DNA from: an uncultured Alphaproteobacteria bacterium
GTDB taxonomy: Bacteria; Pseudomonadota; Alphaproteobacteria; Rhizobiales; Xanthobacteraceae
Reading direction: 5' to 3'
Assembly (NCBI GenBank): GCA_963741595.1
Contig: CAVUIV010000008.1
Span: forward strand, 172,587 to 236,586
Length of the DNA stretch: 64,000 bases
Part shown: positions 27,622 through 64,000 of the stretch, one piece after another
Layout: each line of letters begins with the position of its first letter
Position numbering within the stretch: position 1 is the stretch's first letter
Made by a program: the position numbers and the translations under genes
Notes under the pieces: model-generated
Told to the model about the DNA's origin: nothing
Seen by the model: the letters and a program-made list of their open reading frames with translations, nothing else
The model's database searches: none

Positions 27622-27662
27622 GCCGGCATAGTCGCCGAAGATCAACGTCGTGTGTCGCTCTT

Positions 27663-31786: not shown

Positions 31787-31827
31787 CTCGTGAACGCAGC
31801 AAATCCCGAGGCGCGCTCCGACGGCAC

Positions 31828-33147: not shown

Positions 33148-33152
33148 TAGTG

Positions 33153-38144: not shown

Positions 38145-38155
38145 CAGTCCGAACT

Positions 38156-41007: not shown

Positions 41008-41041
41008 GACTCATTCCAAGCCCAGTGATCGGGCGAGCATA

Positions 41042-41589
41042 TCAGAAATATTCGGGAGACTCGGCAAGCCGCGGATGCTGCCGATCGCGATCGGATAGAT
41101 GCGGCTCCCTGGCCCGATCGGCCACGCAATCGCGAGATCCGGATCGTCCCATGCGATGCCGCGCTCGCTGGCCGGATCGTAGGGCGCGGTCAGCTTGTAG
41201 ACGACCTCGGTATCGGGCTCCAGCGTGCACAAGCCGTGCCCAAAGCCGATCGGAATCCAGATCTGCTTCCGATTCGCGGCCGAAAGCTCGACGGTGGCGT
41301 GGCGACCAAAACTCGGGGAACCGGCGCGGAGATCCACGACCACATCGAAGATCGCGCCGCGAACCACGCGCACCAGCTTGCCTTGCGCGTGCGGCGGGAC
41401 CTGGAAGTGGATACCCCGGATCGTGCCGGTCGTACCGAATAGCTGTGGTTCTCCTGAACGAAACGCACCGGCGCGACGTTCGCGTCAAACCCGCCTCGTT
41501 GTAGGTCTCGGACAGGAAGCCGCGTGTGTCGCTGAATTTCCGGGGAATGATGACGACGGGCCCGGGTATTCGAGCGTCCGGATATGCAT
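41042..41589 (-). pseudogene. rmlC: dTDP-4-dehydrorhamnose 3,5-epimerase, about 3 frameshifts
   Basis: IPGPVVIIPRKFSDTRGFLSETYNEAG is in ORF 41042..41659. [10 protein letters not shown] is in ORF 41190..41618. [78 protein letters not shown] is in ORF 41011..41373. The tail [14 protein letters not shown] returns to the 41042 frame. Confidence 0.9.
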
Positions 41590-41878
41590 GATAACAAGCC
41601 GATCCCGCATGCGCGCACGTTAGAGGTCGAGCATTAGGGGATTTCCCGCGGACCCGCAACCGATTGAGCGTCCGGCGTCTGCTCGAGCGGCATTCGAGCG
41701 CGCCAGCGGCTTGATCGGGCGAGCCGGCACGCCTGGGTCGGCGCGGGCAGAACGATCAGGTTCTGGCGCTTGGTCCTCTTGGGTTCGCTCAGGTGGGCCG
41801 ATGTGGAATTCAGTATATTGATACCGAATGGTTTTGTTGCTTTCGGTCCATGGCCCCGCATTGTATCGTGTGTTGTTG

Positions 41879-42848
41879 ATGGTCTCGGAGCAGCGGAATG
41901 AAGAGCGAGCTGTCTTGGTGACCGGCGGCGCCGGATTTCTGGGGTCGCATCTGTGTGCGCGGCTGGTGCGCGAGAAATACGACGTCCTGTGCGTCGACAA
42001 TTTCTATACCGGGACCAAGCGCAACATCGCGGGGTTGCTGGATGCCCCCAATTTCGAGCTGATGCGTCACGATGTGACGTTTCCGCTCTACGTCGAGGTC
42101 GACCAGATCTACAATCTCGCCTGTCCGGCGAGCCCGGTGCACTACCAGTTCGATCCCGTCCAGACGACCAAGACCAGCGTGCACGGCGCGATCAACATGC
42201 TTGGTCTTGCCAAGCGCGTGAAGGCGCGGATCTTGCAGGCGTCGACATCGGAGGTTTACGGCGATCCGGCGGTGCATCCGCAGAAGGAGGACTACTGGGG
42301 CCACGTCAATCCGATCGGCATTCGTAGCTGCTACGACGAAGGAAAGCGTTGCGCCGAGACGCTGATGTTCGACTACTACCGGCAGCACGCGTTGGAGATC
42401 AAGGTCGCGCGGATCTTCAACACCTACGGTCCGAACATGCATCCCAATGACGGGCGCGTGATCAGCAACTTCATCGTGCAGGCATTGAAGGGCGACGAAA
42501 TCACGATCTATGGCGACGGTTCGCAGACGCGCTCGTTCTGTTACGTCGACGATCTCATCGATGGCATGATCCGCCTGATGCGTGTCGCCGGCGGATTTCA
42601 TCGGTCCGGTCAATCTCGGAAATCCCGGCGAGTACACGATCCGTCAGCTTGCCGAAGAGGTGTTGCGGCTGACCGGAAGCCGCTCGAAGCTCACGTTCAA
42701 GCCGCTTCCGTCCGACGATCCGATGCGCCGCTGTCCCGACATCACGCTCGCGAAGACGCGGCTTGACTGGAAGCCGACGGTTCCGCTGGAAGACGGCCTC
42801 AAGGAGACGATCGCCTATTTCCGCGCGTTGCTTTCGGAGAGGCCTTAG
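41879..42848 (+). pseudogene. UDP-glucuronate decarboxylase (UDP-xylose synthase family), one frameshift near 42581
   Basis: ORF 41828..42766 contains [18 protein letters not shown]...[11 protein letters not shown]...[19 protein letters not shown]...[24 protein letters not shown] 42582..42848 continues with [26 protein letters not shown]...[14 protein letters not shown]. Confidence 0.9.
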
Positions 42849-42901
42849 CGCCGGGCGCTACCGCGGCAGGTACCGTCGGCGAACAATAGCCGCTGCGAAG
42901 T

Positions 42902-43464
42902 CTAGCTGCCGCTGACGAAATAGGACGACAGTCGCGTCGTCACGTTGTCGGCAATGACCTTGGCGGCGCGGCGTTCCGCGTCCTGCATGCCGGTGATACG
43001 GGCGTAGCGCTGCGTGCCGGACGGATCGTAGGAAACGGTGGTCGTGGCGCGTCCGGTCAGCACCGGCTTGTTGGTGGCGATCTCGACCAGGCTATAGGTC
43101 GCGTTGAGCGTGAAATTCTCGATGAACGGCAGGCCGGTGACATTGGTCGCGGACACGACCGCGCGGCTGCCGGACGATTTGCATCAGCCAGCCGATGCGT
43201 CGGCGCGCCGGCGCTGCCGCCGCCGGTGAAGTTGAAGCGCAGTTCGTTCTGGATCGGGACCGCCATCCGCGCTTCCGGCGTATCGGCGGCCGCCCTGATC
43301 TCCACGACCTGGACGCCGCTGAGCGCCTCGCGCAGCTTGGGGCCGCCGGAGACCGAGCGATCCCCATAGAGCGGCTGAAAACAGCCGGCCACGAGCAATG
43401 CCGCCGCCAGCACGGTGGCAGCGCGCACCAGTCGCCGGATCGTCGCTCGGCTGTCGAACCCCAA
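42902..43464 (-). pseudogene. Outer-membrane lipoprotein, LptE-like (LPS-assembly lipoprotein family), one frameshift near 43160
   Basis: A TTG start at 43464 gives RRLVRAATVLAAALLVAGCFQPLYGDRS (lipobox LVAGC) in the ORF 43057..43764 frame. The C-terminal half is ORF 42902..43156 (VTGLPFIENFTLNATYSLVEIATNKPVLTGRATTTVSYDPSGTQRYARITGMQDAERRAAKVIADNVTTRLSSYFVSGS). The LptE assignment is from memory of homologous annotations and is not verified. Confidence 0.45.
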
Positions 43465-43599
43465 CGTGCAACCCCCTGTCGCGGCCAACGAGCGGGACGC
43501 CCGCGACGAAGCTATTTTAGCACGTCGGCCGCGGAAGGCGAGCCCGAATATCCCCTCGGCGCGCCAGGTCGGCGCGTTATCCCCTTGAGACCGCTCGAC

Positions 43600-44913
43600 T
43601 AATTGCGGGCAGGGCCGACCGACGCTCTCGTACACAAACCCGAGTTCGGCAATATCGGCGGCCTGATAGACATTTTTAAGGTCGACGAAGACGGGGCTCG
43701 CCATGATCGTTTTCAGGCGGCCGAAATCGAGCGCCCGGAATTGCTCCCACTCCGTTACCAGCACGAGGGCATGTGCGCCCGTCGGCCGCCGAATAGGGGC
43801 TGTCGCAATAGGTGATGTCGGGCATGAGCGGCTTGGCCTGCTCCATGCCGGCGGGATCGTAGGCGCGGACCTCGGCGCCCAGGTCCTGCAGCGCGGTCAC
43901 CAGCGCGATCGAGGGCGCCTCGCGCATATCGTCGGTGTTCGGCTTGAAGGTCAGGCCAAGCACGGCGATGGTCTTGCCGCGAATCGAGCCGCCCAGCGCG
44001 GCGGTCACCTTGCGCGCCATCGCGCGCTTGCGCTGGTCGTTGACCGACACGACGGTCTCGACGATGCGCAGCGACGTGCCGTGGTCCTGCGCGGTCTTGA
44101 TCAGCGCAACGGCGTCCTTGGGAAAGCAGGAGCCGCCGTAGCCCGGGCCGGCGTGCAGGAATTTCGAGCCGATGCGGTTGTCGAGCCCGATCCCGCGCGC
44201 GACCTGCTGGACATTGGCGCCGACCTGCTCGCACAGGTCCGCGATCTCGTTGATGAAGGTGATCTTGGTCGCGAGGAAGCTGTTGGCGGCGTATTTGATC
44301 ATTTCCGCCGTCCGGCGATCGGTGAACAGGATCGGCGACGCGTTGAGGTAGAGCGGGCGATAGAGGTCCGAAAGCACCTCCCGGGCGCGCTCGTCGTCGG
44401 TGCCGACGACGATCCGGTCCGGGTGCTTGAAGTCCTGGATCGCCGCGCCTTCGCGCAGGAATTCCGGATTGGAGACCACCGGCACCGCAATATCCGGGCC
44501 GCAACTCGCGCAGAATCCGTTCGACCTCGTCGCCGGTCCCGATCGGCACCGTCGATTTGGTGACGATGACGGTCGTGTCGGACAGGAGCGGCGCGAGCTG
44601 GCGGGCGGCGGCGTAGACAAACGACAGGTCGGCATGGCCATCGCCGCGCCGCGACGGCGTGCCGACCGCGATGAACACCGCGTCGGCCGTCGCGCACGGC
44701 GGCAAGGTCGGTCGTGAAGGCCAGCCGCCCCTGCTGCCGGTTGGCGGCGACCAGGTCGGCGAGCCCGGGCTCGTAGATCGGGATGTCGCCTTGATTGAGC
44801 GCCGCGATCTTGTCGGCGTCGCGGTCGACGCAGATGACGTCGTGACCGAAATCCGCAAAGCAGGCTCCCGACACGAGCCCGACATAACCGGTACCGATCA
44901 TCACCACGCGCAT
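43600..44913 (-). pseudogene. ugd: UDP-glucose 6-dehydrogenase, about 4 frameshifts
   Basis: [51 protein letters not shown] is in ORF 44299..45018. [21 protein letters not shown]...[12 protein letters not shown] is in ORF 43755..44885. [16 protein letters not shown]...GGSCFPKDAVALIKTA...GLTFKPNTDDMREAPSI is in ORF 43676..44998. LVTEWEQFRALDF...DLKNVY is in ORF 43057..43764. Confidence 0.9.
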
Positions 44914-45148
44914 GAGAATCCGAAATCGTTCCGACTGAATGCAACGCAGGCGCGCTAGATACCCCTGTTTGTCGCCGCCTGCGAGCCCAACCTGCCATTT
45001 TTCGATATCCGATATCAAGCCATTGATTTAATTGAATATTGTACCCGCTGGTGGGGCGAGCGGCGGGAGCGGATTGACCATCTGAGGGCGTGTGCGGACG
45101 GCGATGTGCGCGGACGCGAACCGGCCTCTGGCTGCGGCCGGTCTGGAT

Positions 45149-46471
45149 CTATCGTTCGCGGAACGTCCGCGCGATCTGCTCCTGCAATGGCTTCAGCAGG
45201 AATTCGAGCGGCGTGCGCACGCCGGTTTCGATCAGGGCTTCGGCCGGCATGCCCGGCACCAGCTTGAGCTCGCCGAGGGTCTTCAATGAGTCTTCGTTGA
45301 TGCGAGACCCGCGTCAGGAAGTAGGCTTGGCCGGGTTGCCCGCCGGTCGCGGTCTCGCGCGTGAGGTCGGCGGAGATATGGGTGACCACGCCGCTGACGG
45401 ACGGCGTCGTGCGCTGATTGCCGGCCATGATCCGGACCTGGACCGGAGCGCCCTTGACGATCTGGTCGATGTCGACTGGCGCTACCCTGGCTTCGACCAC
45501 GAGCTGGTCCTGCCGCGGCACGATCAGCATGATGGTCTCGCCGGCGCCGATCACGCCGCCGACGGTGTGCACGGTCAGCTGGTGCACGGTGCCGCTCTCC
45601 GGCGAGCGGATGTCGATGCGCCGGAGCTGGTCCACGGCGGCGATCATGCGCTCCTTGAGCTCGGCGATCCGGCCTTCGATCTCCCGCAGTTCCTTCAGCA
45701 CCTCGGTGCTGAAGTCCTTGTCGATCTGGATGATCTGCAGCTCGATCTCGCTGATGCGGCCGCGCGCCCGGGCGATGTCGGCGCCGAGCTGGCCATGCTC
45801 GCCTTCGAGCTTGGCCTGGTCGCGCTGCAGCGCCATGTAAGCGCATGATGCTGACCAGGTTCTTCGCGTAAGAGCTCGCTGACGCCCTTGAGCTCCTCGC
45901 CGATCAGGCTGATTTCGCTTTCCTTCGCCTTGCGCTGCGCCGACAGTCCGCGGACCTCTTCGTTGATCTGCGCGACCCGTTCCTGCAACAGTCCGCGCTG
46001 TCCGATCCGCGATTGGCGCCGGGACTCGAACAGCTTCTGCTCGCCGGTGATCGCGGTCGCCACCTGGCTTTCGCCGCTGCGCGCGATCAGCTCGTCCGGG
46101 AAACACAATCGTTTCGGCGTTGTCGCGCTCGGCGGTCAGGCGCGCCTGGCGGGCCGTCAACTCGTCGAGCTGTGACCGGATGACGCCGAGGTTGGCGCGC
46201 GGCACGGTATCGTCGAGGCGGACGACGACCTGGCCTTCTTCCACCAGGCTGCCTTCCTTGACGAAGATCTGCCCGACGATGCCGCCGGTCGGATGCTGCA
46301 CTTTCTTGACGTTCGATTCGACCACGACGAATCCGGAGCGCGATCACGGCGCCGGACAATTGCGCCGTCGCGGCCCAGCCGCCGACGCCCAGCACCAGAA
46401 TGGCGACGGTCCCAAGTCCGATGAGGTTGAGCTTGCGGATCGTCCGGTGCAGATCGCTGGTCGCCGCTCAT
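45149..46471 (-). pseudogene. HlyD-family type I secretion periplasmic adaptor (membrane fusion protein), about 4 frameshifts
   Basis: The ATG at 46469..46471 overlaps the ABC gene stop (ATGA). VESNVKKVQHPTGGIVGQIFVKEGSLVEEGQVVVRLDD...coiled coil...IRSPESGTVHQLTVHTVGGVIGAGETIMLIVPRQDQLVVEARVAPVDIDQI is in ORF 45015..46325. Other pieces are in ORFs 45695..46108 and 46087..46395. My own reading of the C-terminus gives LVPGMPAEALIETGVRTPLEFLLKPLQEQIARTFRER* at 45149. Confidence 0.85.
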
Positions 46472-48279
46472 CGCCGCTCTTCCTTCGGTGGCTCGCCGAC
46501 GACCTTGAGATTGGCGCCGGCAGCGGGGGTCGGGCGCTGGCGCTGACATCCGCCGCAGCACCTCATCGCGCGGGCCGAAGTCGCGCTGCTGGCCGTTGAG
46601 CAGCACCAGCACCTTGTCGCACAGCGCCAGCGCCGAACGCCGGTGCACCACCACGATGACAATGGCGCGCCGCAGCTTCAGTTGCTTGATGGCGTTTTGC
46701 AGGGCGGCTTCGCCCTCGCCATCGAGACTGGCGCTCGGCTCGTCGAGCAGGACGAGGAAGGGGTCGCCATAGAGCGCGCGGGCAATCGCGATGCGCTGCT
46801 GCTGCCCGATCGACAAGCCTTCGCCGCCGTCGCCGATCATCGATGTCGTAGCCGCCCGGCAGCCGCAGGATCATGTCATGGGCGCCGGCGGCCTGCGCGG
46901 CGCGCAGCACCGCTGCGCTGTCGGGCTCCGGCGCCATCCGCGCGATGTTCTCGGCGACGGTGCCGGGAAACAGTTCGACCATCTGCGACATGTAGCCGAG
47001 GTGCCGGCCGAGCGCGTCCGGATCCCATTGCTCGAGCGCGGCGCCGTCGAGGCGGACCGATCCGCGCGCCGGCGGCCAGATCCCGAGCAGGACGCGCGAC
47101 AACGAACTCTTGCCGGAGCCGTTCGGTCCGATGACGCCGAGCACCTCGCCCGCCGCGAGCCGGAACTGCACGTTGGTCAGGATCGCGGTCTTGCCACCCG
47201 GCGCCGCGACCGTCACGCTCTCGACCGAAAGGCTGTCGGTCGGCTTCGGCAGGTCGGTGAGGCCGCGTTCCGCCGGCATCCGCGCCAGCGTCTCCGACAA
47301 GGCGTCGGATGCTGTCGCGCGCGGCGACAAAGCCGCGCCAGTTTGCGATCGCGACCTCGATCGGCGCCAGCGCGCGTCCCATCATGATCGAGGCGGCGAT
47401 CATGGCGCCGGCGCTCATCTCCTGCCGGATCACGAGATAGGCGCCGAGTCCGAGGATCGCCGACTGCATCAGCAGCCGCAGCACCTTGGTGATGCTGCCG
47501 TAGGAATTGACGACGTCGCTGGAGCGGCCGACCGCGTCGACGTGACGGTCGTTGACCTTGGCCCAGCGCGTTGCGAGCGCGCCGATCATTCCCATCGACA
47601 TCACCGAGGCGACGTTGCGGCGGCCGGCTTCGGCCATGGCGGTCCGCATGCCGCCGCTTTCGTTGACCGCCTTCGCGAGACCCCGGCTGGCGCGCTCGGT
47701 CTGGATCGTGATCGCCATCAGAACGATGGCGCCGGCCAGCGAGAGGTAGCCGATCCAGGGATGAATCAGGAAGCAGATCGCGAGAAAGAACGGCATCCAG
47801 GGCAGGTCGACGATCGCGATCGGGCCGGTGCCGGTCAGGAAGGAGCGGATCTGATCGAGGTCGCGGATCGGCTGGTGCGCCTGCGCGGCATTGCCGCCGC
47901 GCGCTCCAAGCGCGATCACCGACCGGTGCACGGTGTCGCCCAGGCGCTGATCGAGCAGCGCAGCCGCGCGCACCACGATGCGCGAGCGGATCAGATCGAG
48001 GATGCCCTGGAACGCATAGGCGCCGACCAGGAAGACCGTCAGCGCCACCAGGGTCGGGACGTTGCGGCTCGCCAGCACGCGGTCGTAGACCTGCAGCATG
48101 TAGATCGGGCCGGCCAGCATCAGCAGATTGACGATGGCCGAGAACAGCGCGACGCCCCAGAACGCGCGCCGGCAGTCCGTCAGCACGGCGCTCAGAGCCG
48201 TATGAAACGGCTGGTTGCTTTGGGCAGTCGTTGCAGCAAAGGGTACATCCAACTGTTGGCCGCGGGGTCGCAGAGCCAT
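46468..48279 (-). pseudogene. Type I secretion system permease/ATPase (PrtD/HasD/PrsD type, no N-terminal C39 peptidase domain), about 3 frameshifts
   Basis: The TMD is in ORF 46876..48414, from MALRPRGQQ... through LMLAGPIYMLQVYDRVLASRNVPTL. The NBD is in ORF 46563..47330 (VLGVIGPNGSGKSSLSRVLLGIWPP) and ORF 46157..46840 (LSIGQQQRIAIARALYGDPFLVLLDEPSASLD). Confidence 0.85.
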
Positions 48280-52663: not shown

Positions 52664-52915
52664 CATCCGAAGCGTCCTTTGCTGCGCCTGCCGAGGCGGC
52701 ATGGCAATGCGGCGTGTCCGTCTCTCGATCACCATTAGCGCGACTGTCAGCATTGCCGGAACGATCGATGCGAGGCAACTGCGCTACGTTGCCGGAGTTC
52801 CCGTTGGCTGGTCTCCGCGGCAACGGATATTGTCGCTCCGGGCCGCCCGTGGTGCTTACATTGCGCGCCGCCGCCGAAATAGGTAAGGAAACCCGATCCT
52901 AGCGAGGTGCTTCAA

Positions 52916-53677
52916 ATGCCGACGGTCGCGACCCTGAAGGTCAAGCTGTTCACGGACGGCGCTGAAAAGTCTCAGATCCTCGAGATGGCAAAACAGCCCT
53001 GGATCCGGGGTTTTACCACCAATCCCTCGCTGTTGAAAAAAGCCGGGGTCAGTGACTACGCAGCCTATGGGCGCGACCTGGTCGCGGCCGTGCCGGATCG
53101 GCACATCTCGTTCGAGGTGTTTTCCGACGATATCCCGGAGATGGTGGCGCAGGCGCGTGTCATCACGACGTGGGGCGAGAATGTCTACGTCAAGCTGCCG
53201 GTGACCACGACGCGCGGCGAGCCGTTGTTCGATGCGGTACAGCAGCTCTCGCGCGACGGCGTCAAAATCAACATGACGGCGATCTTCACGCGCGACCAAG
53301 CGCAACATGCCATCGCCGCCCTGGCCGGTGGCGCACCGGCGTGCGTGTCGGTGTTCGCCGGGCGCCTTGCCGATTTCGGGATCGATTATCGTCCGATCAT
53401 GGAGGACGCGATCACGCGGGCGCGGGCGACGGCCAATGTTGAGATCATCTGGGCGTCGACCCGCGAGGTGTTCAATGTCGTCGAAGCCGACGCCATGGGG
53501 TGTCACATCATCACGGCGCCCGCGGATATCCTCAAAAAATTGCCGGCGCTGGGCACGCAGGATGGCGTCGCGCTGTCACTCGGCGCGGTGAAAGCATTCC
53601 GCGAGGACGCACTGTCGGCTGGGTTGAGCCTAACGACCGATTCGGCGATCGAGCAGCGCGAGAAATCGCGCGCCTGA
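52916..53677 (+). CDS. Transaldolase-family protein (short transaldolase / fructose-6-phosphate aldolase type)
   Basis: Intact ORF (track 52907..53677). It contains [43 protein letters not shown] (Schiff-base Lys context) and [10 protein letters not shown]. Confidence 0.8.
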
Positions 53678-53708
53678 CGGGACCGAAGACGTTCGGAGAG
53701 GGGCCTCA

Positions 53709-54755
53709 ATGTCTGGCAAAGTTGCTCTGATCACCGGTGCCACTGGGCAGGACGGTGCGTATCTGTCCGAATTGCTGCTCGGTAAAGGCTATACCGTCCA
53801 TGGCGTGAAGCGGCGCTCATCATCCTTCAATACCGGGCGCGTCGATCATCTTTATGCCGATCCGCACCAGAAGGGCGTCAAGTTCTTCCTGCATTTTGGC
53901 GACCTCACGGACGCGACCAATCTCATCCGGCTGATTCAGGAAATCCAGCCGGATGAGATCTACAATCTTGCGGCGCAAAGCCACGTCGGGGTGAGCTTCG
54001 AGACCGCCGAATACACCGCGAATGCCGATGCGCTCGGGACGCTGCGCCTGTTGGAGGCCATTCGCATCCTCAAGCTCGAGCCGCGCGTGCGCTTCTATCA
54101 GGCGTCGACCTCCGAGTTATTCGGCAACGCGACCGAAGTGCCGCAGAAGGAAACCACGCCATTTGCGCCGCGCAGCCCCTACGGTGTTGCCAAGCTTTAC
54201 GCCTATTGGATCACGGTCAATTACCGGGAGGCATACGGCATCCACGCCTCGAACGGCATTCTGTTCAATCATGAAAGTCCGGTCCGCGGCGAAACCTTCG
54301 TGACCCGCAAAGTGACGCGCGCGGTTGCGGCGATCGAACGCGGCCTGCAGAAGAAGCTCTTTATCGGCAATCTGGATGCCATCCGCGACTGGGGTCATGC
54401 TCGCGACTATGTCGAAGGCATGTGGATGATGCTTCAGCAGCCGAAGCCCGGCGACTATGTTCTCGCGACTGGAGAAGCCCACACGGTGCGCGAATTGATC
54501 GAGCTCGCCTTTGCGGTGGCCGGCCGGACCATTGCCTGGCGGGGACAGGGGCTGGACGAAGTCGGTACCGACCAAAAGACCGGCGAGGTTCTGATCGAGA
54601 TCGATCCAAACTATTTCCGGCCGACGGAGGTCGACCATTTGCTCGGCGATCCGAGCAAGGCTCACCGTGAACTAGGCTGGCGGCATCGGGTCTCGTTCAG
54701 TGAATTGATTGAGGAAATGGTCAATAGCGATATCCAACAGCTCAAGGATCGATGA
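53709..54755 (+). CDS. gmd: GDP-mannose 4,6-dehydratase
   Basis: Intact 348 aa ORF with [43 protein letters not shown] and [20 protein letters not shown]. Confidence 0.95.
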
Positions 54756-55720
54756 GTTCAGTCAGCGCCAAGCGCTATGAGTTGCGGGGCAAGCGTGTCT
54801 GGGTCGCCGGACATCGCGGCATGGTGGGAGGCGCCATCGTGCGACGGTTGTCGTCGATGGATTGTGAATGCCTGACGGTGACGCGGAGCGATCTCGATTT
54901 GACGCGGCAGGTGGAGGTCGAGGCGTGGGCCGAAGCAAACAGGCCGCAGGCGGTCTTCGTTGCGGCCGGACGGGTGGGCGGTATCGTCGCCAACAACACG
55001 CAGCCGGTTGACTTCATCTACGACAATCTCCTGATCGAGGCCAACGTGATCGCCACGGCGCATCGCGTCGCCGTGGAAAAGCTGCTGTTCTTGTCTTCGT
55101 CATGCTCCTACCCTCGGCTGGCGTCGCAGCCGATGAACGAGGACGCCTTGCTGACCGGGCCGCTCGAACCCACCAACCAATGGTATGCGATCGCCAAGAT
55201 CGCCGGCATGAAACTCACCGAAGCCTACCGCCGTCAGCACCATGCCGATTTCATCTCGGTATTGCCGACAAACCTGTACGGTCCCGGCGACAACTATCAT
55301 CCCGAGCACAGTCACGTGCCGGCCGCGCTCATCCGCCGCTTCCACGAAGCCAAGGTCGCCGGCCAGCAGGAGGTGTTGGTCTGGGGCACGGGGGCGCCGC
55401 GGCGCGAATTCATGGCCGTCGATGATCTTGCCGATGCCTGCGTGTTTCTCATGCAGAATTATTCCGGTGATCAGGCGCTCAATATCGGAACCGGGACCGA
55501 CACCAGCATCGCCGATTTCGCTCGCTTGGTGGCGGAGGTGGTCGGGTTTTCCGGCAAGATCGTTTTCGACCGAACGCGCCCCGACGGCGCGCCGCAGAAG
55601 CTGCTTGACGTGTCGCGGCTGACGGCGCTCGGCTGGAAGGCGGCGACGCCGCTGCGTGAAGGGCTCGCAGCAGCCTATGCCGACTTCCTGAAAGCGGGTG
55701 CGGCCGCCCGGCTGGCCTGA
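54752..55720 (+). CDS. fcl: GDP-L-fucose synthase (GDP-4-keto-6-deoxy-D-mannose 3,5-epimerase/4-reductase)
   Basis: Intact 322 aa ORF whose start overlaps the gmd stop (ATGA). It contains [54 protein letters not shown] and [23 protein letters not shown]. Confidence 0.95.
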
Positions 55721-55896
55721 CCGCAAAAAGTGCTGTTTTGGCAGTGACTGCCGCCAAATCCACAGCGTCAGTCGAGTGTAACTCTCTGACAAAAAATGTG
55801 TTTTACGGTATTTCCGGGCGCGGTCGCCATTCCCGACCGGCTATGTTAGCAAGGCCTGGGGTTGGTCTTAATTCACCTCGCTTGGGGGCGAGCGAC

Positions 55897-56892
55897 ATGC
55901 GACAGACCGCGAACAGTGACGCGGACAAGCTGCTGCGAGTGGGTGTCGTCGGCATCGGCGTCATGGGTAGCAACCATGCGCGGGTGTTTGCCGACCTGCC
56001 GGGCGTCACGCTGGTCGGCGTGGCCGATCCCGAACCGAAGCAGCGCGACATGGTGGCGGATGCCCTCGGCTGCGCCACGTTTCCCGATGTTGATTCTTTG
56101 CTGGCGGCCGGGGTCGACGCTGTCACCATCGCCGCGCCGACGCACCTGCATCGCGAGCTCGCACTGGCCTGCATCGGCCGTGGCGTCCATGTGATGGTCG
56201 AAAAGCCGATCGCTTCGTCGGTCGAGGAGGGGCGCGCGATCATCGCAGCAGCGCGCCGCGCCGGGCTCACATTGATGGTCGGTCACGTCGAGCGCTTCAA
56301 TCCGGCAGTTCAGACCATCAAGGAGGCGATCCGCGGCGAGGACATTCTGTCGATCGCGATTACCCGGGTCGGTCCGTTCCCGCCGCGCATGTCGAATGTC
56401 GGCGTCGTGATCGACCTTGCGGTCCACGATATCGACCTGATTAGCTGGTTCACCGACTCGCAAATCGTCGAGGTGCAGCCACAGCTCAAGAGCGCGGTGG
56501 CGGAGCGCGAAGATATCGCCTTACTCCAATTCCGCACCGCCTCGGGCGTGCTCGCCCATATCAACACCAACTGGCTGACGCCGTTCAAGGCGCGCAGCGT
56601 GACGGTGGCGACCCGCGACAAGTACATCACGGGCGATCTGCTGACCCGTCAGGTCACCGAGTGCTTCGGCTTCCAGCGTGACGGTAGCTATTCGATGCGC
56701 CATCTCTCGGTTGGTCACGCCGAGCCGCTGCGGGCGGAATTGCAGTCGTTCGTGACAGCGATCCGTACCGGCGATGCGCCGCCGGTAACCGGCGAAGACG
56801 GAGTGGCGTGCCTCGAAGTCGCGACGCGATGTTTGCAGCACAGCCCGGCGCAGCCATCAGCCCAGCGCGGTCCGCGCCTGCTGACGGGTTGA
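55897..56892 (+). CDS. Gfo/Idh/MocA-family NAD-dependent sugar-nucleotide oxidoreductase (GnnA/WbpB-like)
   Basis: Within track ORF 55738..56892, from the ATG at 55897: LRVGVVGIGVMGSNHARVFADLPGVTLVGVAD...VMVEKPIASSVEEGRAII...MVGHVERFNP. Confidence 0.8.
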   Translation: MRQTANSDADKLLRVGVVGIGVMGSNHARVFADLPGVTLVGVADPEPKQRDMVADALGCATFPDVDSLLAAGVDAVTIAAPTHLHRELALACIGRGVHVMVEKPIASSVEEGRAIIAAARRAGLTLMVGHVERFNPAVQTIKEAIRGEDILSIAITRVGPFPPRMSNVGVVIDLAVHDIDLISWFTDSQIVEVQPQLKSAVAEREDIALLQFRTASGVLAHINTNWLTPFKARSVTVATRDKYITGDLLTRQVTECFGFQRDGSYSMRHLSVGHAEPLRAELQSFVTAIRTGDAPPVTGEDGVACLEVATRCLQHSPAQPSAQRGPRLLTG

Positions 56893-56931
56893 CCGAGTTA
56901 GAGTGGTCTTTCGATGAATTAGCAGGTCCGG

Positions 56932-58068
56932 TTGGACAATACTCCGATCCCGTTCATTGACGTCGCGGCGCAACGGCGGCGGCTTGGCGATGCGATCGAT
57001 CAGGCGATCGCGCGCGTGCTCAGCCATTGCCAATTCATCCTCGGTCCGGAGGTGCACGCGGTCGAAGCCGACTTGGCGGCGTTCTGCGGCGCTCGCCACG
57101 CCATTACTTGCGCCAGCGGGACCGACGCCTTGCTGATGCCGCTGATGGCGAAGGGCATTGGCCCGGGCGATGCGGTGTTCACGCCGGCGTTCACCTTCTA
57201 CGCAACCGCCGAAGTGGCGGCTCTGGTCGGCGCGACCCCGGTGCTGGTGGACGTCGAGGAGGGGAGCTTCAACCTCGATCCGAACAGCCTCGCGCGGGCA
57301 ATCCCCGTGGCGCGCAAGCACGGTCTGAAACCGAAGGCCGTCATTCCCGTCGACCTGTTCGGACAACCCGCCGATCATGCCGCGGTCGCCGCCATCGCCG
57401 AGGCGGAGAGTCTGTTCGTGATCGACGATGCCGCGCAGGCGTTCGGTGCGACCTATCGCAATCGCAAGATCGGAACCTTGGGGAGCGCGACCGGCACCAG
57501 CTTTTTTCCAGCCAAGCCGCTCGGCTGCTACGGCGACGGTGGTGCGGTGTTCACCGATGACGACGAACTGGCGGAAATCCTGCGCAGCATCCGCGTGCAT
57601 GGCGAAGGCCGCGGCAAATATGATTGCGTCCGTATCGGGCTGAACGGTCGCTTCGACACCGTCCAAGCCGCGATACTGATCGAGAAGCTCAAGATATTCC
57701 CCGATGAGATCGCGGCGCGCGGGCGTATTGCCGCGCGGTATTCGGCGGCGCTCGCCGACGTTACGACGATACCGCGCGTGGCCGAAGGCTCGACCTCGGT
57801 GTGGGCGCAGTACACCATTCGCGTTCCGGCGGAGCGGCGAGACGGCTTCGCGGCAACGCTCAAGGCGCAGGGCATTCCGACCGCGATCCATTACCCCAAG
57901 CCCGTTCACGGCCAGAGCGCTTACCGTCATTGTCCAGTGGCGGAGGGCGGATTGCCGGTCTCAGAGCGCCTCGCAACCGAGGTCATCAGCCTGCCGATGC
58001 ATGCCTATCTCGAGCCGCCGGTGCAGGACCGCATCATCGCGGCGGTGCGGCGCGCGCTTGGCGGGTAG
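56932..58068 (+). CDS. DegT/DnrJ/EryC1/StrS-family PLP-dependent sugar aminotransferase (GnnB/WbpE-like)
   Basis: Intact 378 aa ORF with IPFIDVAAQRRRLGDAIDQAI, CASGTDALLM, DDAAQAFGATY and SFFPAKPLGCYGDGGAVFT (PLP-Lys context). Confidence 0.85.
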   Translation: MDNTPIPFIDVAAQRRRLGDAIDQAIARVLSHCQFILGPEVHAVEADLAAFCGARHAITCASGTDALLMPLMAKGIGPGDAVFTPAFTFYATAEVAALVGATPVLVDVEEGSFNLDPNSLARAIPVARKHGLKPKAVIPVDLFGQPADHAAVAAIAEAESLFVIDDAAQAFGATYRNRKIGTLGSATGTSFFPAKPLGCYGDGGAVFTDDDELAEILRSIRVHGEGRGKYDCVRIGLNGRFDTVQAAILIEKLKIFPDEIAARGRIAARYSAALADVTTIPRVAEGSTSVWAQYTIRVPAERRDGFAATLKAQGIPTAIHYPKPVHGQSAYRHCPVAEGGLPVSERLATEVISLPMHAYLEPPVQDRIIAAVRRALGG

Positions 58069-58307
58069 CGTCAGCACCGCGCGCGCGACCCTGATCAATT
58101 CCGACCGACGTTGACTGTGGCACGACGCATCGTTTGCGTTCGCGGCGGCGCGCATCGATCCGATTTCGGACGGCGCAAGGTATGTCTGTACTCCGACGCC
58201 GATATTGGACCGCGGAGAAGTTCCCGCGCGCTGTGAACAACCGCGAAGTGGTCACACTCGCATGGCGTAGTCGGTCGCTGATTCGAGACGACAAGGGGGA
58301 GATCAGG

Positions 58308-58643
58308 ATGTCGGTATTTCCGAAGATCGAACACGGCGCGGCCCGGGTTGCGGACGTGACCGAGAACATCCAGGAGTTCGTTCGTCAGCAACAATTGGTG
58401 GCCGACGGTCAGGAGGTCGCAAGCAATCTTGCCTCACTGCTCCAACAGGCAGCCGGAAGCTCGGTGCGCGAGGTCGATAACCTGGTCGCCGAACTCGAAA
58501 AGCTGCGCGAAAAGTTGCAGCGGGATGGAGCTCGCGTCCAGCAAGATTTGCTGGAATACGCGACGTTCACGCAATCCACCCTGAACTCGACGAAGGTCAT
58601 TTCTGAATCGCTGCGGAGCCGGTTTCCAACGCGCTCCACGTGA
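58308..58643 (+). CDS. Small hypothetical coiled-coil protein (111 aa)
   Basis: The internal ATG of track ORF 58134..58643 is preceded by AAGGGGGAG. The sequence is MSVFPKIEHGAARVADVTENIQEFVRQQQLVADGQEVASNLASLLQQAAGSSVREVDNLVAELEKLREKLQRDGARVQQDLLEY.... I recognised no family. Confidence 0.4.
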   Translation: MSVFPKIEHGAARVADVTENIQEFVRQQQLVADGQEVASNLASLLQQAAGSSVREVDNLVAELEKLREKLQRDGARVQQDLLEYATFTQSTLNSTKVISESLRSRFPTRST

Positions 58644-58650
58644 GTTGACG

Positions 58651-58851
58651 TCAGTTCGAACTGGCCTTTGCGGCGCGCGGGGACGCCGATGCTGCAGACG
58701 CGCAGAATGCGTCGTAGCCGTAGCGGGCCCGGTGCAGCCGGCTGATGGCTCCAAGGGCAGACTCGATCGCCTCCAAGTCCTCGGCCGCGAAGGCGGCGCG
58801 GAACTGCTCTTTCGCAGCATCCATGAGCATGGCGAAGGCGGCGGGCGACAT
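58651..58851 (-). CDS. Small hypothetical protein (66 aa)
   Basis: Internal ATG of track ORF 58651..58902: MSPAAFAMLMDAAKEQFRAAFAAEDLEAIESALGAISRLHRARYGYDAFCASAA.... It is convergent with the previous ORF, with a 7-nt gap. Confidence 0.3.
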   Translation of the reverse strand: MSPAAFAMLMDAAKEQFRAAFAAEDLEAIESALGAISRLHRARYGYDAFCASAASASPRAAKASSN

Positions 58852-59077
58852 TGTTGCGTTCCATCTCGATCGCTCACAGGTTGGTCCGCCAGCCGTTAGC
58901 AAATCGTTATCGTCGAACGCGCGGGTCGGGCTATCCTGTTCGCAGGCGACACGTCCTCAGTCCCTCATTTGCGAGCGAAATCCCTTTGGCGCAGGCCTCC
59001 AGGGATGAAAAAGCGAACTTCGTTATGTTTTTTCCGATACCAAGGGACTGCGAAGGGGGCAGGGGCACCGAGGGTCC

Positions 59078-60637
59078 ATGATCGGACGCATCTTTACGGT
59101 CGGCGGCTTTACGCTGCTGTCGCGGATCACCGGCTTTGCCCGCGACATCGTGCTGGCCGCCATTCTCGGCGCCGGCCCGGTGGCCGACGCGTTCCTGGTG
59201 GCGCTGCGGCTGCCCAATCATTTCCGGGCGATCTTTGCCGAGGGTGCCTTCAATGCCGCCTTCGTGCCGGCCTATGCGCGCATTCGCCAACAAGGTGGCG
59301 CCGACCCCTCGAAGCTGTTCGCCGATCGCGTCTTCACGCTGCTGGTTGCTGTGCAAGCGCTGCTCCTGGTCGTGGCGCTTGTCTTTACGCCCGCGGTGAT
59401 TTCGGTGCTGGCCCCCGGATTCTCGCAGGACGGCGAGCGCTTCACGCTCGCGGTGGAATTGACGCGCATCACGTTTCCCTACCTGCTGCTGGTCTCGCTG
59501 GTGACGCTCTATGGCGGCATCCTCAACGCGCTCGGGCGTTTTGCCTCCGCTGCCGCCGCGCCGATCCTGCTCAACCTCTCGATGATCGCCGCGCTCGCGC
59601 TCGCGTTGTTTTTTCCGACCGCGGGCCACGCCGCCGCCTGGGGCGTCTTCATCGCGGGTTGCCTCGAAGTGTTGCTGCTGATGGTTGACGCCGGCCGGCA
59701 GGGCGTGCTGCCGGCGTTCCGCTGGCCGCGGCTCGATCAGGAAATCAAGACATTCCTCAAGCGCTTCGGGCCCGCGACCATCGGTTCGGCCGAGACGCAG
59801 ATCGCGCTGTTCGCCGATACCATCATTGCGAGCTTCCTGGCGGTCGGTGCCTTGTCGGCGCTGTATTACGCCGATCGGCTCAATCAATTGCCGATCGGCG
59901 TGATCGGGATTGCGGTCGGCACCGTGCTGCTTCCGGAGATGGCCAACCGGCTGGCGCAAGGCGATGACCGCGGTGCGCGCCATGCCCAGAATCGGGCGAT
60001 CGAATTCACGCTGTTGTTGTCGATCCCGTGCCTGGTCGCCTTCGCGCTGCTGCCGGAGCTGATCATTCGCGCACTGTTCGCGCGTGGCGCCTTCACCGCG
60101 GCGGATGCCGCGGCGGCCGGCGCGACGCTGCGCGCCTACGCGCTTGGTCTCGTGCCATTCGTGCTGATGCGCAGCGCCGCGACAACGTTTCTTGCGCGTG
60201 GCGACACCTGGACGCCGGTCAAGGCGCTGTTCTTCGCGGTGTTGGTCAATGTCGCGCTCAAGGTCCTGCTCTACGACCCCTATGCGCAGGTCGGTCTCGC
60301 CTTCGCGACTTCGGTCGGCGGCTGGATCAATCTCACGCTGTTAGTCTGGTTCGCCCACCGTGCCGGCCTGTTCGCGTTCGAAGCCTTCGTCGTTCGTTCG
60401 ATCGGTCGGCTGGCGGTGGCGGGACTGGTTCTCGCGGTCGTGCTGTGGCTCGCGGCGGCTCCTGTTCAAAGGCTTTTTGCGGGCCATTCCTTCCGGGACG
60501 AATTGGCGCTGGCGTTGCTCGCCGTCATCGGCGCCGTCGTGTATGCGGCCATCGTGCTGGCGCTGTTCGGCCGCTCCTGGTTCGCGGCCTTCATCACTCG
60601 GGCAAGCGCGGCCCCGCCGCCAACCCCCAACGCCTGA
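59078..60637 (+). CDS. murJ: Lipid II flippase MurJ (MviN)
   Basis: Intact 519 aa polytopic ORF with FTVGGFTLLSRITGFARDIVLAAILGAGPVADAFLVALRLPNHFRAIFAEGAFNAAFVP and SALYYADRLNQLPIGVIGIAVGTVLLPEM. Confidence 0.95.
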   Translation: MIGRIFTVGGFTLLSRITGFARDIVLAAILGAGPVADAFLVALRLPNHFRAIFAEGAFNAAFVPAYARIRQQGGADPSKLFADRVFTLLVAVQALLLVVALVFTPAVISVLAPGFSQDGERFTLAVELTRITFPYLLLVSLVTLYGGILNALGRFASAAAAPILLNLSMIAALALALFFPTAGHAAAWGVFIAGCLEVLLLMVDAGRQGVLPAFRWPRLDQEIKTFLKRFGPATIGSAETQIALFADTIIASFLAVGALSALYYADRLNQLPIGVIGIAVGTVLLPEMANRLAQGDDRGARHAQNRAIEFTLLLSIPCLVAFALLPELIIRALFARGAFTAADAAAAGATLRAYALGLVPFVLMRSAATTFLARGDTWTPVKALFFAVLVNVALKVLLYDPYAQVGLAFATSVGGWINLTLLVWFAHRAGLFAFEAFVVRSIGRLAVAGLVLAVVLWLAAAPVQRLFAGHSFRDELALALLAVIGAVVYAAIVLALFGRSWFAAFITRASAAPPPTPNA

Positions 60638-60650: not shown

Positions 60651-60755
60651 TTAAAGCATGATCCCGAAAAGTGGGAACCGGTTTTCGGAAAAGATCATGC
60701 TCAATCAAGAAGCTAAAGCGTGATTGTGATTTAACTTAAAGCAATCACGCTTTAG
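60651..60755. repeat. REP-like element (same family as 900..975, opposite orientation) with a perfect 14-bp stem; probable bidirectional terminator between murJ and the protease gene
   Basis: agcatgatc/gatcatgct flank ccgaaaa..ttttcgg. Next comes ctaaagcgtgattg (60713..60726) paired with caatcacgctttag (60742..60755). The minus-strand pseudo-translation is MIEHDLFRKPVPTFRDHAL (track ORF 60466..60708). Confidence 0.65.
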
Positions 60756-63700
60756 GGCCGCGCCGCCACCGTCGTCGCCGGTCGTGGCGTCACCGGTCGC
60801 GGCGCGGCCGCCGAGCGCGGCGTCGCCATGTCGATCGCCCGCATCGGGTCGACCAGGCCAGCGCCGAACTGGTTGGCCGGACCAAGCCGCTTCGCGCTGG
60901 CAGCAAGGATCCGACGCACCTCGGGGGGCGTGAGCTTGGGATTGCGCTCAAGCATGAGTGCGACCACGCCGCTGATGTGGGCGGTCGCAACCGAGGTGCC
61001 GGTCGTGACCTGATATTCGCCAGCGGGCGCCGGCACCAGAATGTCCACGCCCGGTGCCGCGATCGCGACGTGGTTGCCGCGATTGGCGCCGGTGAACAGC
61101 CGATCGTCGACATCGGTCGCGGTCACCGCGATGACGTTCGGATCGGCGGCCGGGAACAGGGCAGGGGCGCGCGGTCCGGCATTGCCCGCCGCCGCGATCA
61201 GGACGATGCCCTTGTCATGGGCGGCCTTGAGCGCGCGCTCCAATGATGGATCGCGCGGTCCGGCAAAGCTCATATTGACGATGCGCACGTTGTTGCTGAC
61301 CGCCCAATCCAGTCCCTTGAGGATGTGGTAGGTGGTGCTTTCGGTGTTGCTGGCGCGGGCCGAGAACGCGCGGATGGCGAGGATGCGTGCGCCCGGCGCC
61401 ACGCCGAGCAGCTTTTGCCGCGAGACGATGGCGCCCGCCATGCCGGTGCCGTGCGGATGCGGATTGTCCTCGACGCCGGTCGCGTCATAGCGGCCGGCGA
61501 CCGCGCCGCGGTAATCCGGGTGCGCGCCGTCGATTTCCGAATCGATCACGCCGATCGAAACGCCGGCGCCCGTGACCACGCGATGCGCGGTGAGGAGCCG
61601 CAGTTTCTCCGGCACGTATTGGCCGGGGTCGCCCTGCTGCGACGTGGCCGACTGCACCGACGTCTCGGTCAGCGCGTAAAGATAATTGGCTTGCGCCGCG
61701 GCAATGACCTGGTGCGCCGCCAGGGCGCGGATCACGCCGGCGATCGTCTCGCCGCTCGCATGCTGCATCCGGTAAGCGGCATTGCCGCCTTCCTGCAGGC
61801 ACTGCGAACCGAGTACCGAGAGATTGTGCTGCTTCAGGATCTCGTTGAGCGTGGCCGTCGGCACGTCGCAGGGCAACTGCAGCACCACCTCGTTGGTGGC
61901 GAGGCGAGTCTCCCCGGGCGGCGGCAAATAGAAGAAGCGGTTTTCGCCGACGTCGAGCCGGATCGGATTGCCAACGCTGCCGGTCGTGGTCCCGTCAGCC
62001 TGCTGCTGTTGTGCTTGCCGTTGCTGCTGCTGCTGTACGAACAGCGTCGTGTCGGGAAGCGGATCGGCTGCCGGCGGCGTGTTGAGCTGATTGGGATTGA
62101 TCTGCTGGTCCGGCGGCTGCACGAATTGCGGGTTGTCGTTGATCGGCGGGATCACCGGCGGCAGCGGCGTGGTGTCTTGATCGTTGGGAACGATGTTCAC
62201 CAGGAACGGATAGGAATGGTGCGCCCAGACCGCCGCATCGAAGCCCGGCGGCAGTCCGCCTGACAGCACGGCCGTGTTCATACCGGTGCCGCCGGCGCTG
62301 GTGGTGATGCCGGTGGTTTGCATATCCCAGTACGAATTGGTGGCGGTTCCGGGGGGCAGCGTGCCCTCGGGGAGATTGAGATCGGACGGGAGATTGGGCG
62401 TGAGGTTGTTCGATGCGACGAGGCCACCCAGCGTGCTGCCGGTGCCGCCCAAGACGCGCCCGACGCCATAAACTTCATTCAGCGAGCCGAGATTGAGCGC
62501 GGCAAACGCCGCGGCGACCGTTTGATTGGCTCCGGTGACGGGGCCAAGCGCATAGGATTGCGTGATCGAGCCGGCGTTATAGGATTGCGTGATTGAGCCG
62601 GTGTTAAAGTCGGCTTCCGAGATTGCCGCTTTCAATCCCGCATCGAGGTTCGGATTGAAGCCCAGGTTCACGGCGACGAAGCCGCCGACGTAGCTGTTGG
62701 CGCCGCCGGTCACCGCCCCTTTGGCATAGGCCTGATTGATATCGCCGAAATTGAATCCGACAAATCCGCCGGCAAAGCCGTTGTCGCCGACCGAGACATT
62801 GCCGGACGCGTAGGAGAGCGCGATCTGCCCGATATTGATTCCGACGAAGCCGCCCGCGATGGCGGTCTCTGCGTTCGTCGACACGTTTCCGGTCGCGTGG
62901 GAGTTGGTGATCTGGCCGGCATTGCCGCCGACAAAGCCGCCGAGCATTGCGAGTGTCGGGGTGGTGGCGGTCACAGTTCCCCGTGGCATGGGAACTGGTG
63001 ATGGTGCCGAAATTGAATGCAGCGAAACCGCCGAGCGTGACGTCGCCGTTCGTGCTCGACACCGCGCCGGTCGCATGCGAGCCGGAAATGCTGCCCTCAT
63101 TGGCGCCGACAAATCCGCCGGCAAACGCGTCGCCCGCGCCGGTCATCGTCAGCGTTACGCTGCCGGTGGCGTAGGAGCTGGTGACGCTGCCGCTGTTGTC
63201 GCCGATGAAGCCGCCCGCAGTGATGCTGCCGGTGCCGGCGACCGCGCCGGTCGCGTGCGAGCCGGTGATGGTCGCTCCCCAAGAATTGAGGCCGACCAGC
63301 CCGCCAATCGTGCCCTGGCCGTTGCCGGTCACGGTGCCGGTGGCATGGGAATTGGTGATGGTGGCAAAGTTGCCGCCCACGAGGCCGCCAAGCTGAACTT
63401 GATTGGTGCCGCTGACCGCGCCGGTGGCATAGGAGCCGACGATCTCGCCCCCTTCGTTGTTGAGGCCGACGAGCCCGCCGACGATGGCGGCATATTCGTT
63501 GTCCGTCGAGCCGACGCCGCTGGCGTTGCCGGTCGCGTGCGAACCGGAGATCAGGCCGGTGTTGAAGCCGACCAGTCCGCCGACCGCGCTGCTGGAGTCG
63601 GATCCGGTCGCGGTTGAACTGACCGCGCCGGAGGCGGACGAACTGGTGACCGAGCCGTGGTTCTGACCGACCAGCCCGCCGACGAAGCTATAGATGCCAC

Positions 63701-64000
63701 CCGTGACATTGCCCGACGCACTCGACGAACTGATGGTCGATCCCGCGATGTTGGTTCCGACCAGTCCGCCGGCATTGTTCCAGGAGCCGTAGCAGTCGCC
63801 AACGCAGCCATTGCCCACGGTGACGGTTGCCGCAACGGTCGCGTTCGTAATCGTGCCCGGCAGCGAGAATTCGGTATCGAAGACGCCGTTCTGCCCGACC
63901 AGTCCGCCAGCAACGATGCCGGCCAGGTTCAGCCCGTCAACGGTGCTGTTGGTGACGGTGACGTTGCTGATCGTGCCGGCGTTCGAGCCAGCGAGCGTGC
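60752..64000 (-). pseudogene. Giant GLUG-repeat exoprotein with a C-terminal I9-like propeptide and S8 (subtilisin-family) peptidase domain. It is 5'-partial (N-terminus beyond 64000) and has one frameshift in a C4/G4 run at 62969..62972.
   Basis: ORF 62604..63818 plus my own translation up to 64000 (no stop) gives about 10 GG(L/F)VGxNxGxIxxS(H/Y)A(T/S)GxV units. ORF 60752..63124 adds about 5 more units. Then come SYWDMQTTGITTSAGGTG, a P/Q-rich linker, and the S8 triad: Asp 61541..61543 (GVIDSEID), His 61451..61453 (HPHGTGMAG) and Ser 60992..60994 (GTSVATAH). Confidence 0.8.

Follow-up and report, generated by a model that had tools for sequence, protein, structure and literature searches.

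A GLUG-Repeat Exoprotein of Two-Partner Secretion with a Probable Latent Pro-Subtilase as C-Terminal Cargo in Soil Alphaproteobacteria

Introduction

Two-partner secretion (TPS), the type Vb route, is known to carry adhesins, cytolysins, toxins of contact-dependent growth inhibition (CDI), the heme-acquisition protein HxuA and one protease, LepA. To our knowledge, the subtilases of type V secretion are all type Va autotransporters; one of them, SphB1, acts in trans on a TpsA exoprotein, which it matures. The protein family described here unites both themes: TpsA fibers that carry a complete pro-subtilase, prodomain included, as their C-terminal cargo. One member lies on the minus strand at the end of a 64,000-nucleotide (nt) stretch of DNA, hereafter called the window, from an uncultured alphaproteobacterium of the Xanthobacteraceae (GCA_963741595.1, contig CAVUIV010000008.1, positions 172,587 to 236,586). 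What the window holds is probably the last ~1081 residues of a type Vb TpsA exoprotein, which would export a latent pro-subtilase on a fiber of GLUG repeats, the enzyme then cutting itself free outside the cell.

The reviews of the field list LepA as the only TpsA that is a protease (PMC5422565, PMC6555100) and present SphB1 as a separately encoded subtilisin autotransporter maturing filamentous hemagglutinin, FHA (2017 TPS review, PMC5422565), and the 2019 review of type V passengers concurs. Our literature searches found neither a characterized fusion of TpsA with a subtilase nor GLUG repeats together with TPS, in agreement with the first-pass annotation of the window, which had been made from the DNA letters and their translations and knew of no characterized example of such an architecture.

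The TpsA-Subtilase Family

The full architecture can be read in five intact relatives (L001, L006, L016, L017, and L018), each of which encodes in one open reading frame (ORF) of 1797-2167 amino acids (aa) a signal peptide, a Pfam TPS domain, Glug repeats, a linker, the prodomain, and a C-terminal S8 protease. In L006, a locus in a metagenome-assembled genome of Xanthobacteraceae, a 556-aa protein with POTRA_2 and ShlB domains is followed after a gap of 10 nt by a 2167-aa ORF, the order of which is signal peptide, TPS domain (PF05860, 1.3e-29; TIGR01901, 69.9 bits, above cut-off), M26_N-like and Glug repeats, two SYWD motifs, a poly-Q/Pro linker equivalent to that of the window protein, prodomain, and S8. 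The same layout recurs in L001, in a single frame of at least 2129 aa that reaches the end of its contig, with TpsB upstream; the more distant intact members (L016, 1797 aa; L017, 2065 aa; L018, 2011 aa) have TpsB immediately upstream too. A TpsB gene of POTRA_2 plus ShlB/FhaC type lies directly upstream in L001, L006, L007, L008, L014, L015, L016, L017, and L018.

Two of these loci, L014 and L015, show 83-85% protein identity to the window protein and are syntenic with the window, their gene order being ShlB/POTRA_2, TPS, Glug, S8, convergent MurJ, DegT, GFO/IDH/MocA, and epimerase/GDP-mannose dehydratase. Here the gene fragments for TpsB, TPS, and Glug lie 5.5-7 kb upstream of the protease, and in L015 the TpsB call alone has a Pfam match among them. 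From this evidence we strongly infer a TPS domain in the part of the window gene past the edge and a tpsB gene beyond it; the length of the complete protein, going by its closest intact relatives, would be about 2100-2200 aa. The first-pass annotation had proposed that the window carries the C-terminus of a TPS exoprotein armed with a protease, a proposal now borne out by the intact and syntenic relatives with TPS and TpsB; the TPS domain, signal peptide, and adjacent TpsB gene that it suggested looking for beyond the window edge are all present in relatives (L001, L006, and L016-L018).

How common is this arrangement? Cluster representatives numbering 1.84 billion were searched exhaustively; of the 150 closest, some 27 measure 1200-2467 aa and have the protease at the very end. 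Pfam analysis of the long representatives (n = 28) found S8 in every one, Glug in 25, and TPS in 20. Their database names are "filamentous hemagglutinin family protein" or "S8 family serine peptidase". The architecture is not rare: it is abundant, diverse, and widespread in soil Alphaproteobacteria and annotated only in generic terms. The first-pass annotation had asked for a survey of how widespread the fusion is; it proved common in soil metagenomes, and a characterized example did not turn up in the literature. A search from the TPS domain of an orthologue for alternative C-terminal cargo was uninformative: all that it retrieved were fragments of 316-572 aa, although some of the contigs measured 100-400 kb.

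The prodomain and S8 module, judged from these sequences, occurs both free and fused to fibers. Stand-alone relatives of ~500-700 aa (46-53% identity) combine a Sec signal peptide and a Gly/Pro-rich spacer with the same prodomain and S8 domain, so that the module behaves as a secreted pro-enzyme. Besides the Glug versions, one long relative has prodomain and S8 behind PATR repeats and another behind MBG_2/YDG repeats (A3), which joins the protease module to several types of fiber. The closest short "S8-only" matches on long contigs were considered as stand-alone paralogues and rejected, as they are truncated gene calls that start inside the prodomain or GLUG region and lack a signal peptide.

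Fiber and Linker in the Window

The visible fragment contains 15 repeat cores of the form GG[LFI][VIAL][GA], and the Pfam Glug family (PF07581) matches above its gathering score on both pieces into which the coding region is divided in the window (table 1), namely the upper (3.9e-34, 115.1 bits, five stretches) and the lower (3.2e-8, 33.9 bits). The cores of the lower frame lie at 62927-62941, 62840-62854, 62756-62770, 62672-62686, and 62414-62428. The closing motif that follows, SYWDMQTTGITTSAGGTGMNTAVLSGGLPPGFD, belongs to a type that ends both GLUG blocks of the intact orthologue L006 (NSYWDTGTSGQ... and NSFWDMQTTGITTSAGGTG...). Next comes the Pro/Gln-rich linker, which includes QQQQQRQAQQQQ. 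The first-pass annotation had described about 15 GLUG-type repeats, a closing motif, and a Pro/Gln-rich linker, and all three were located as it described them.

The Subtilase Domain

No other part of the protein is as conserved as the S8 domain: its identity is 85% to L001 and 80% to L006. Linker plus prodomain reach 64% in the comparison with L001, where the fiber has 44%, and the fiber shows 44-45% over the comparisons with L001 and L006. Peptidase_S8 (PF00082) matches with an E-value of 6.2e-44 and 150.9 bits against a cut-off of 21.8. In the alignment with subtilisin BPN' the motifs VIDSEID, HGTGMAG, AAAGN, and GTSVATAH correspond to D32, H64, N155, and S221, which places the catalytic codons at 61541-61543 (D), 61451-61453 (H), 61181-61183 (N of the oxyanion hole), and 60992-60994 (S). 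The latter is the serine codon already named in the first-pass annotation, and the spacings that it gave as about 30 (D-H) and about 153 (H-S) residues in a complete subtilase are exactly these numbers.

Among proteins of solved structure, subtilisin BPN' and subtilisin E come closest in sequence (E 7.9e-39), and an AlphaFold2 (AF2) model with a predicted local distance difference test score (pLDDT) of 80 superposes on subtilisins of the PDB with TM 0.87-0.89 and a root-mean-square deviation (rmsd) of ~2 A. The domain is, on this evidence, of subtilisin type, probably S8A-like, with its catalytic residues intact. The best NCBIfam model of the region 60755-61600 is the mycosin of type VII secretion systems, whereas the best PDB sequences are Bacillus subtilisins; the score of 175.8 bits for this mycosin family (TIGR03921) is well under the cut-off of 278.75 and does not support membership. 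A weak NCBIfam match of the window protein to EprS (6.2e-10) is far under its cut-off.

The Prodomain and the Predicted Processing Linker

The 100-aa segment between the Pro/Gln linker and the predicted processing linker is, by homology and modeling, a subtilase N-terminal prodomain with the predicted roles of chaperone and inhibitor. The assignment is made because of two lines of evidence, a confident predicted fold and, as the stronger of the two, homology to those stretches of relatives that match PF22148, the Pfam family built on the N-terminal prodomain of fervidolysin (Fervidolysin_NPro-like), which has the same fold class as I9. The window segment aligns end to end with the PF22148 stretches of the representatives P0028 (E 1e-19) and P0137 (E 3e-16), with 38-41% identity, and P0028, P0107, P0137, and P0143 all pass the gathering score of the family at the same position. 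PF22148 is found in 8 of the 28 long relatives and matches 12 of 22 homologous segments taken in isolation, the best at 2.6e-7. Not one of the 22 matches Inhibitor_I9 (PF05922) at E<=1, and a PDB sequence search with the profile of the 22 returned only matches at chance level (FlhD, meganuclease). The I9-like propeptide of ~80 aa in the first-pass annotation was therefore correctly recognized in kind and wrongly placed in family; among the profile searches which that annotation suggested, Glug and Peptidase_S8 were found and Inhibitor_I9 was not.

Modeled alone, the segment reaches a pLDDT of 87.2 and a predicted template modeling score (pTM) of 0.78 with the elements E-E-E-H-E-E-H-E, that is, two short strands and then a ferredoxin-like beta-alpha-beta-beta-alpha-beta core, the same topology as in the full AF2 model. 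A fold search with it, which lists the PC1/3 prodomain among the top PDB neighbors (TMt 0.66-0.70), supports the modeled fold class and not any specific family. A pair of cysteines 23 residues apart (61790-61870; LPCDVP ... GSQCLQ) is kept in the closest relatives and absent in distant ones (A4); a periplasmic disulfide between the two could influence passage through TpsB.

Some 35 residues separate the prodomain from the S8 domain. The full AF2 model has pLDDT below 50 in two places, the N-terminal part adjoining the Pro/Gln linker and residues 115-135, a disordered linker of ~20 residues just before S8. Every sequence of alignment A1 has Q134 and Y135, and nearly all have G130, D131, K139, and L140, which form the family-conserved motif GDxxQY...KL. 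Autoprocessing is predicted in this linker, on the analogy of subtilisin.

The Frame Break

The first-pass annotation read the minus-strand frame as open from position 64000 down to 60752. This needs to be corrected: translation from 64000 shows that the frame with the stop codon at 60752-60754 is open only to 63124. The gene is split by an insertion of one base at 62975-62982. Above ~62985 the repeats follow the phase of 63998, whereas everything below, down to the stop, follows that of 64000; the sequence at the junction is cat gcc acg ggg aac tgt gac c. DNA alignments give the window exactly one surplus base in ACGGGGAACTGTG with respect to each of L014, L007, and L001, and deletion of one base restores a continuous translation of 1081 aa with a smooth repeat pattern across the junction. 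The other contention of the first-pass annotation, that there is one long coding region, thus holds once the surplus base is removed. The phrase "repaired translation" in its wording hints that the break had been noticed, though its text calls the frame open.

Left uncorrected, the upper frame would terminate at the stop codon 62604-62606. L014 and L007 align collinearly with the stretch 62983-63998 (~78.5% nucleotide identity), and the G+C content at third codon positions (GC3) is 0.83 on one side of the frameshift and 0.82 on the other. The window was also screened by GC3 for further frame breaks, but the noise was too great for a judgment on the quality of the assembly. TpsA gene calls are fragmented throughout long-read metagenome assemblies (L014, L015, L007-L009, and the hits P0267-P0386), and MurJ is likewise split in L014. 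This fragmentation of TpsA suggests indel errors of assembly, with a bearing on the frameshift of the window. As far as the sequence tells, the frame break would stem from an error of assembly or else from a mutation that inactivated the gene very recently.

Proposed Mechanism

Subtilisin prodomains serve as folding chaperones and then as temporary inhibitors until they are degraded. On this model, the TpsB partner, which should be encoded just upstream, past the window edge, would thread the unfolded chain through the outer membrane; the GLUG region would fold into a fiber, and the prodomain would chaperone the folding of S8 outside the cell. The enzyme would then cut the junction between prodomain and protease, in the disordered linker before GDxxQY...KL. 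Because the prodomain sits between fiber and enzyme, this self-cut would sever the protease from the fiber: the mature enzyme of ~30 kDa would lose its covalent link and yet stay docked on, and inhibited by, the fiber-borne prodomain until the latter is degraded. The outcome would be a latent protease that is presented at the surface and then released, with the degradation or processing of extracellular proteins as its likely use and possibly also the cleavage of its own fiber. The export steps have precedents, as TpsB channels pass unfolded TpsA chains (PMC5422565) and type V systems export S8 passengers such as SphB1 and NalP (PMC5422565, PMC6555100).

A bolder version, which we advance as speculation and think rather improbable, is that the GLUG fiber holds the prodomain-inhibited subtilase away from its producer, as a "protease-on-a-stalk" activated only at that distance, either on contact with a surface or prey cell or as a built-in release switch for the adhesin in the manner of SphB1. 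If true, these abundant proteins of soil Xanthobacteraceae would act as proteolytic weapons that depend on contact, or as adhesins that release themselves, in either case with no need of an immunity protein, and the "protease-on-a-stalk" would constitute an unstudied functional class of type Vb secretion.

Several points weigh against the export of a latent pro-subtilase by the window protein. The N-terminus of the TpsA and its TpsB gene lie beyond the window edge, and exact-sequence look-ups with the MurJ and GDP-mannose dehydratase of the window, made to extend the contig, returned no match. The frame is broken, so that the window copy may not be expressed as a single protein. Export of the protease is not guaranteed either, because some TpsA proteins, FhaB and CdiA, retain their C-terminal part in the periplasm. 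As to the prodomain, the window segment has no Pfam match even at E<=10, nor any PDB fold match at E<=1e-3, its neighbors being mostly generic ferredoxin-like folds (ribosomal S6, ACT), and its placement in the AF2 model is unlike that in unprocessed pro-subtilisin E (rmsd ~23 A vs 3whi).

Alternative Explanations

The broken frame lends itself to the reading that the gene is a pseudogene: the insertion would be real, the truncated fiber would run out of frame to its end at 62604-62606, and the protease part would not be expressed, because an internal start would have no secretion signal. We regard this as possible, if clearly not the likelier course. The break does stand in the sequence and three relatives lack the surplus base; moreover, the genes adjoining the TpsA of the window (MurJ, DegT, GFO, epimerase, and Gmd) are intact ORFs, which indicates that the region is not generally error-ridden. 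Yet this is a single break in 3.2 kb with GC3 near 0.82 on either side of it, the catalytic residues are all intact, and the S8 domain remains 85% identical to that of an intact orthologue. The surplus base may be part of a run of G in a gene made up of repeats, as is typical of assembly errors, and such breaks abound in the related long-read assemblies. That the break instead marks where two ordinary genes abut, one for a repeat protein and the other for a secreted subtilase, can practically be dismissed. No stop-free frame spans the whole region in the window and stand-alone subtilases of the same family exist, but the break amounts to a single extra base, the lower ORF, which has no signal peptide, reads in one frame through five GLUG repeats, closing motif, linker, and protease, and the five intact relatives encode everything in one uninterrupted frame.

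Other alternatives accept an expressed fusion and assign it another function. The main substrate of the enzyme could be its own or sister fibers, the protease playing in cis the role of SphB1 and releasing an adhesin, rather than being a general or offensive protease. The subtilisin SphB1 is indeed responsible for maturing a TpsA and for its release (PMC5422565, PMC6070651), the subtilisin is here fused to TpsA behind a long flexible linker, and most of the closest representatives of at least 1200 aa combine S8 with Glug and TPS. We nevertheless find such self-maturation rather unlikely as the main function, since free-standing forms of prodomain plus S8 with their own signal peptides are common, which argues for external substrates, since the cut at the junction would release the enzyme from the fiber, and since no cleavage site was identified. 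Far less credible is the idea, raised by the first-pass annotation, of an effector delivered into neighboring cells like the polymorphic C-terminal toxin of CdiA (CdiA-CT). The extreme C-terminus of TpsA is the toxin slot of CdiA and BcpA (PMC5422565, PMC6555100), and the same module is found also on PATR and MBG_2/YDG fibers. Against this, the 114 nt between the TpsA stop and the convergent MurJ stop leave no room for an immunity gene, and the downstream genes of L006 and L016-L018 are mutually unrelated, so that an immunity gene is neither present nor conserved. Pfam finds only TPS, Glug, M26_N, and S8 on L006, and no VENN motif was seen on reading the translations of L006 and the repaired window. 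Furthermore, the C-terminal domain is the most conserved and not the most variable, a prodomain of secretory type would be pointless for a toxin delivered to the cytoplasm, and the 2012 polymorphic-toxin survey lists HINT as the only processing protease of toxins of the type V secretion system (T5SS). The export of a latent pro-subtilase on a GLUG fiber hence remains our preferred interpretation of the window protein.

Locus Layout and Neighboring Genes

Table 1. Coordinates of the TpsA-subtilase features and of neighboring genes in the window
Feature	Coordinates	Strand	Basis or remark
GLUG-repeat fiber, upper frame	62983..63998	minus	Codons phased from 63998; 10 repeat cores; runs past window edge
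Frameshift site, one surplus base in ACGGGGAACTGTG	62975..62982	minus	Fourth G at 62979-62982 or T at 62975
GLUG-repeat fiber, lower frame (protease frame)	62336..62974	minus	5 further repeat cores
Repeat-closing motif SYWDMQTTGITTSAGGTGMNTAVLSGGLPPGFD	62237..62335	minus	SYWDMQTTG...GGLPPGFD
Pro/Gln-rich low-complexity linker, 91 aa, with QQQQQRQAQQQQ	61964..62236	minus	Translation
Subtilase N-terminal prodomain (predicted chaperone/inhibitor)	61664..61963	minus	AF2 fold and homology to PF22148 stretches
Prodomain-protease linker, predicted autoprocessing region, GDxxQY...KL motif	61574..61669	minus	AF2 disorder and alignment
Peptidase S8 catalytic domain	60836..61573	minus	Pfam, BPN' alignment, fold
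Pro/Ala-rich C-terminal tail and stop codon 60752-60754	60752..60835	minus	Translation
Convergent MurJ-type flippase gene, downstream locus boundary, outside the system	59078..60637	plus	Pfam MurJ 9.4e-117
DegT/DnrJ aminotransferase	56932-58068	plus	Sugar-nucleotide/polysaccharide cluster
GFO/IDH/MocA oxidoreductase	55738-56892	plus	Sugar-nucleotide/polysaccharide cluster
Epimerase/reductase	54752-55720	plus	Sugar-nucleotide/polysaccharide cluster
GDP-mannose 4,6-dehydratase	53709-54755	plus	Sugar-nucleotide/polysaccharide cluster 52907-60637

Convergent to the TpsA gene lies a cluster for sugar nucleotides and polysaccharides (52907-60637), which includes the flippase of MurJ/MatE type and is syntenic in L014 and L015. 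Because of this polysaccharide context, the "MurJ" of the window may be a flippase for O-antigen or extracellular polysaccharide and not for lipid II. The genes downstream of TpsA in L006 (8673-12082) encode a fusion of cytochrome c, cupredoxin, and multicopper oxidase as well as the denitrification-related NnrS, and they are unrelated to the neighbors in the window. Elsewhere in the window, the regions ~20000-34000 and ~38000-47000 have few ORFs with the strong third-position GC bias of the remainder and could be foreign or atypical DNA.

Significance

If the protease is exported and self-activating, the family would offer a natural test of whether an enzyme that needs a chaperone can pass through a TpsB channel as the C-terminal end of a 200-kDa chain and of how such an enzyme stays latent, besides a possible scaffold for displaying enzymes at the cell surface. 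A more practical consequence concerns annotation, as these genes carry generic labels and are routinely fragmented in long-read metagenome assemblies.

Comparison with Known Systems

The FhaB exoprotein of Bordetella pertussis, with its proline-rich region in the C-terminal part, forms with FhaC and SphB1 one of the closest systems for comparison. The likeness consists of a TpsA fiber, a TpsB of Omp85 type, and a subtilisin tied to the fiber (PMC5422565). SphB1 differs in being a separate type Va autotransporter encoded elsewhere, whereas the subtilase is here fused to the C-terminus of TpsA; FhaB itself has FHA repeats in place of GLUG repeats, and the window protein shows no sequence relationship to the FhaB prodomain. 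LepA/LepB of Pseudomonas aeruginosa shares with the family a TpsA protease and a two-gene unit of tpsB and tpsA. For LepA, the sequence of which was not directly compared, we found no evidence of an S8 domain with prodomain or of GLUG repeats, and it comes from an animal pathogen, while the window family comes from soil Alphaproteobacteria.

The type Va subtilase autotransporters (SphB1, NalP, Ssp of Serratia, and EprS) are similar in that a type V system exports an S8 protease that folds at the cell surface. Theirs is an N-terminal passenger followed by its own C-terminal barrel; ours would be the C-terminal part of a TpsA, placed behind a fiber of ~1500 aa and served by a separate barrel. 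CdiA and BcpA have the N-terminal TPS domain, the long repeat fiber, and an enzyme at the extreme C-terminus in common with the window family, which departs from them in having no immunity gene, no pre-toxin motif, a conserved C-terminal domain, a secretory prodomain, and a fiber of GLUG type. Subtilisin figures in the 2012 polymorphic-toxin survey as a processing protease for routes other than T5SS only.

A GLUG region precedes a C-terminal protease also in the streptococcal M26 zinc metalloproteases (the ZmpA/IgA1 protease family), and the fiber of L006 matches Peptidase_M26_N (3.7e-8) and NCBIfam ZmpA (5.9e-7); these enzymes, however, are Gram-positive, wall-anchored metalloproteases without TPS or TpsB. 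Finally, the stand-alone subtilases of the subfamily, which have neither TPS nor GLUG and measure ~500-700 instead of ~2000 aa, share with the window protein the same module of prodomain plus S8, at 46-53% identity.

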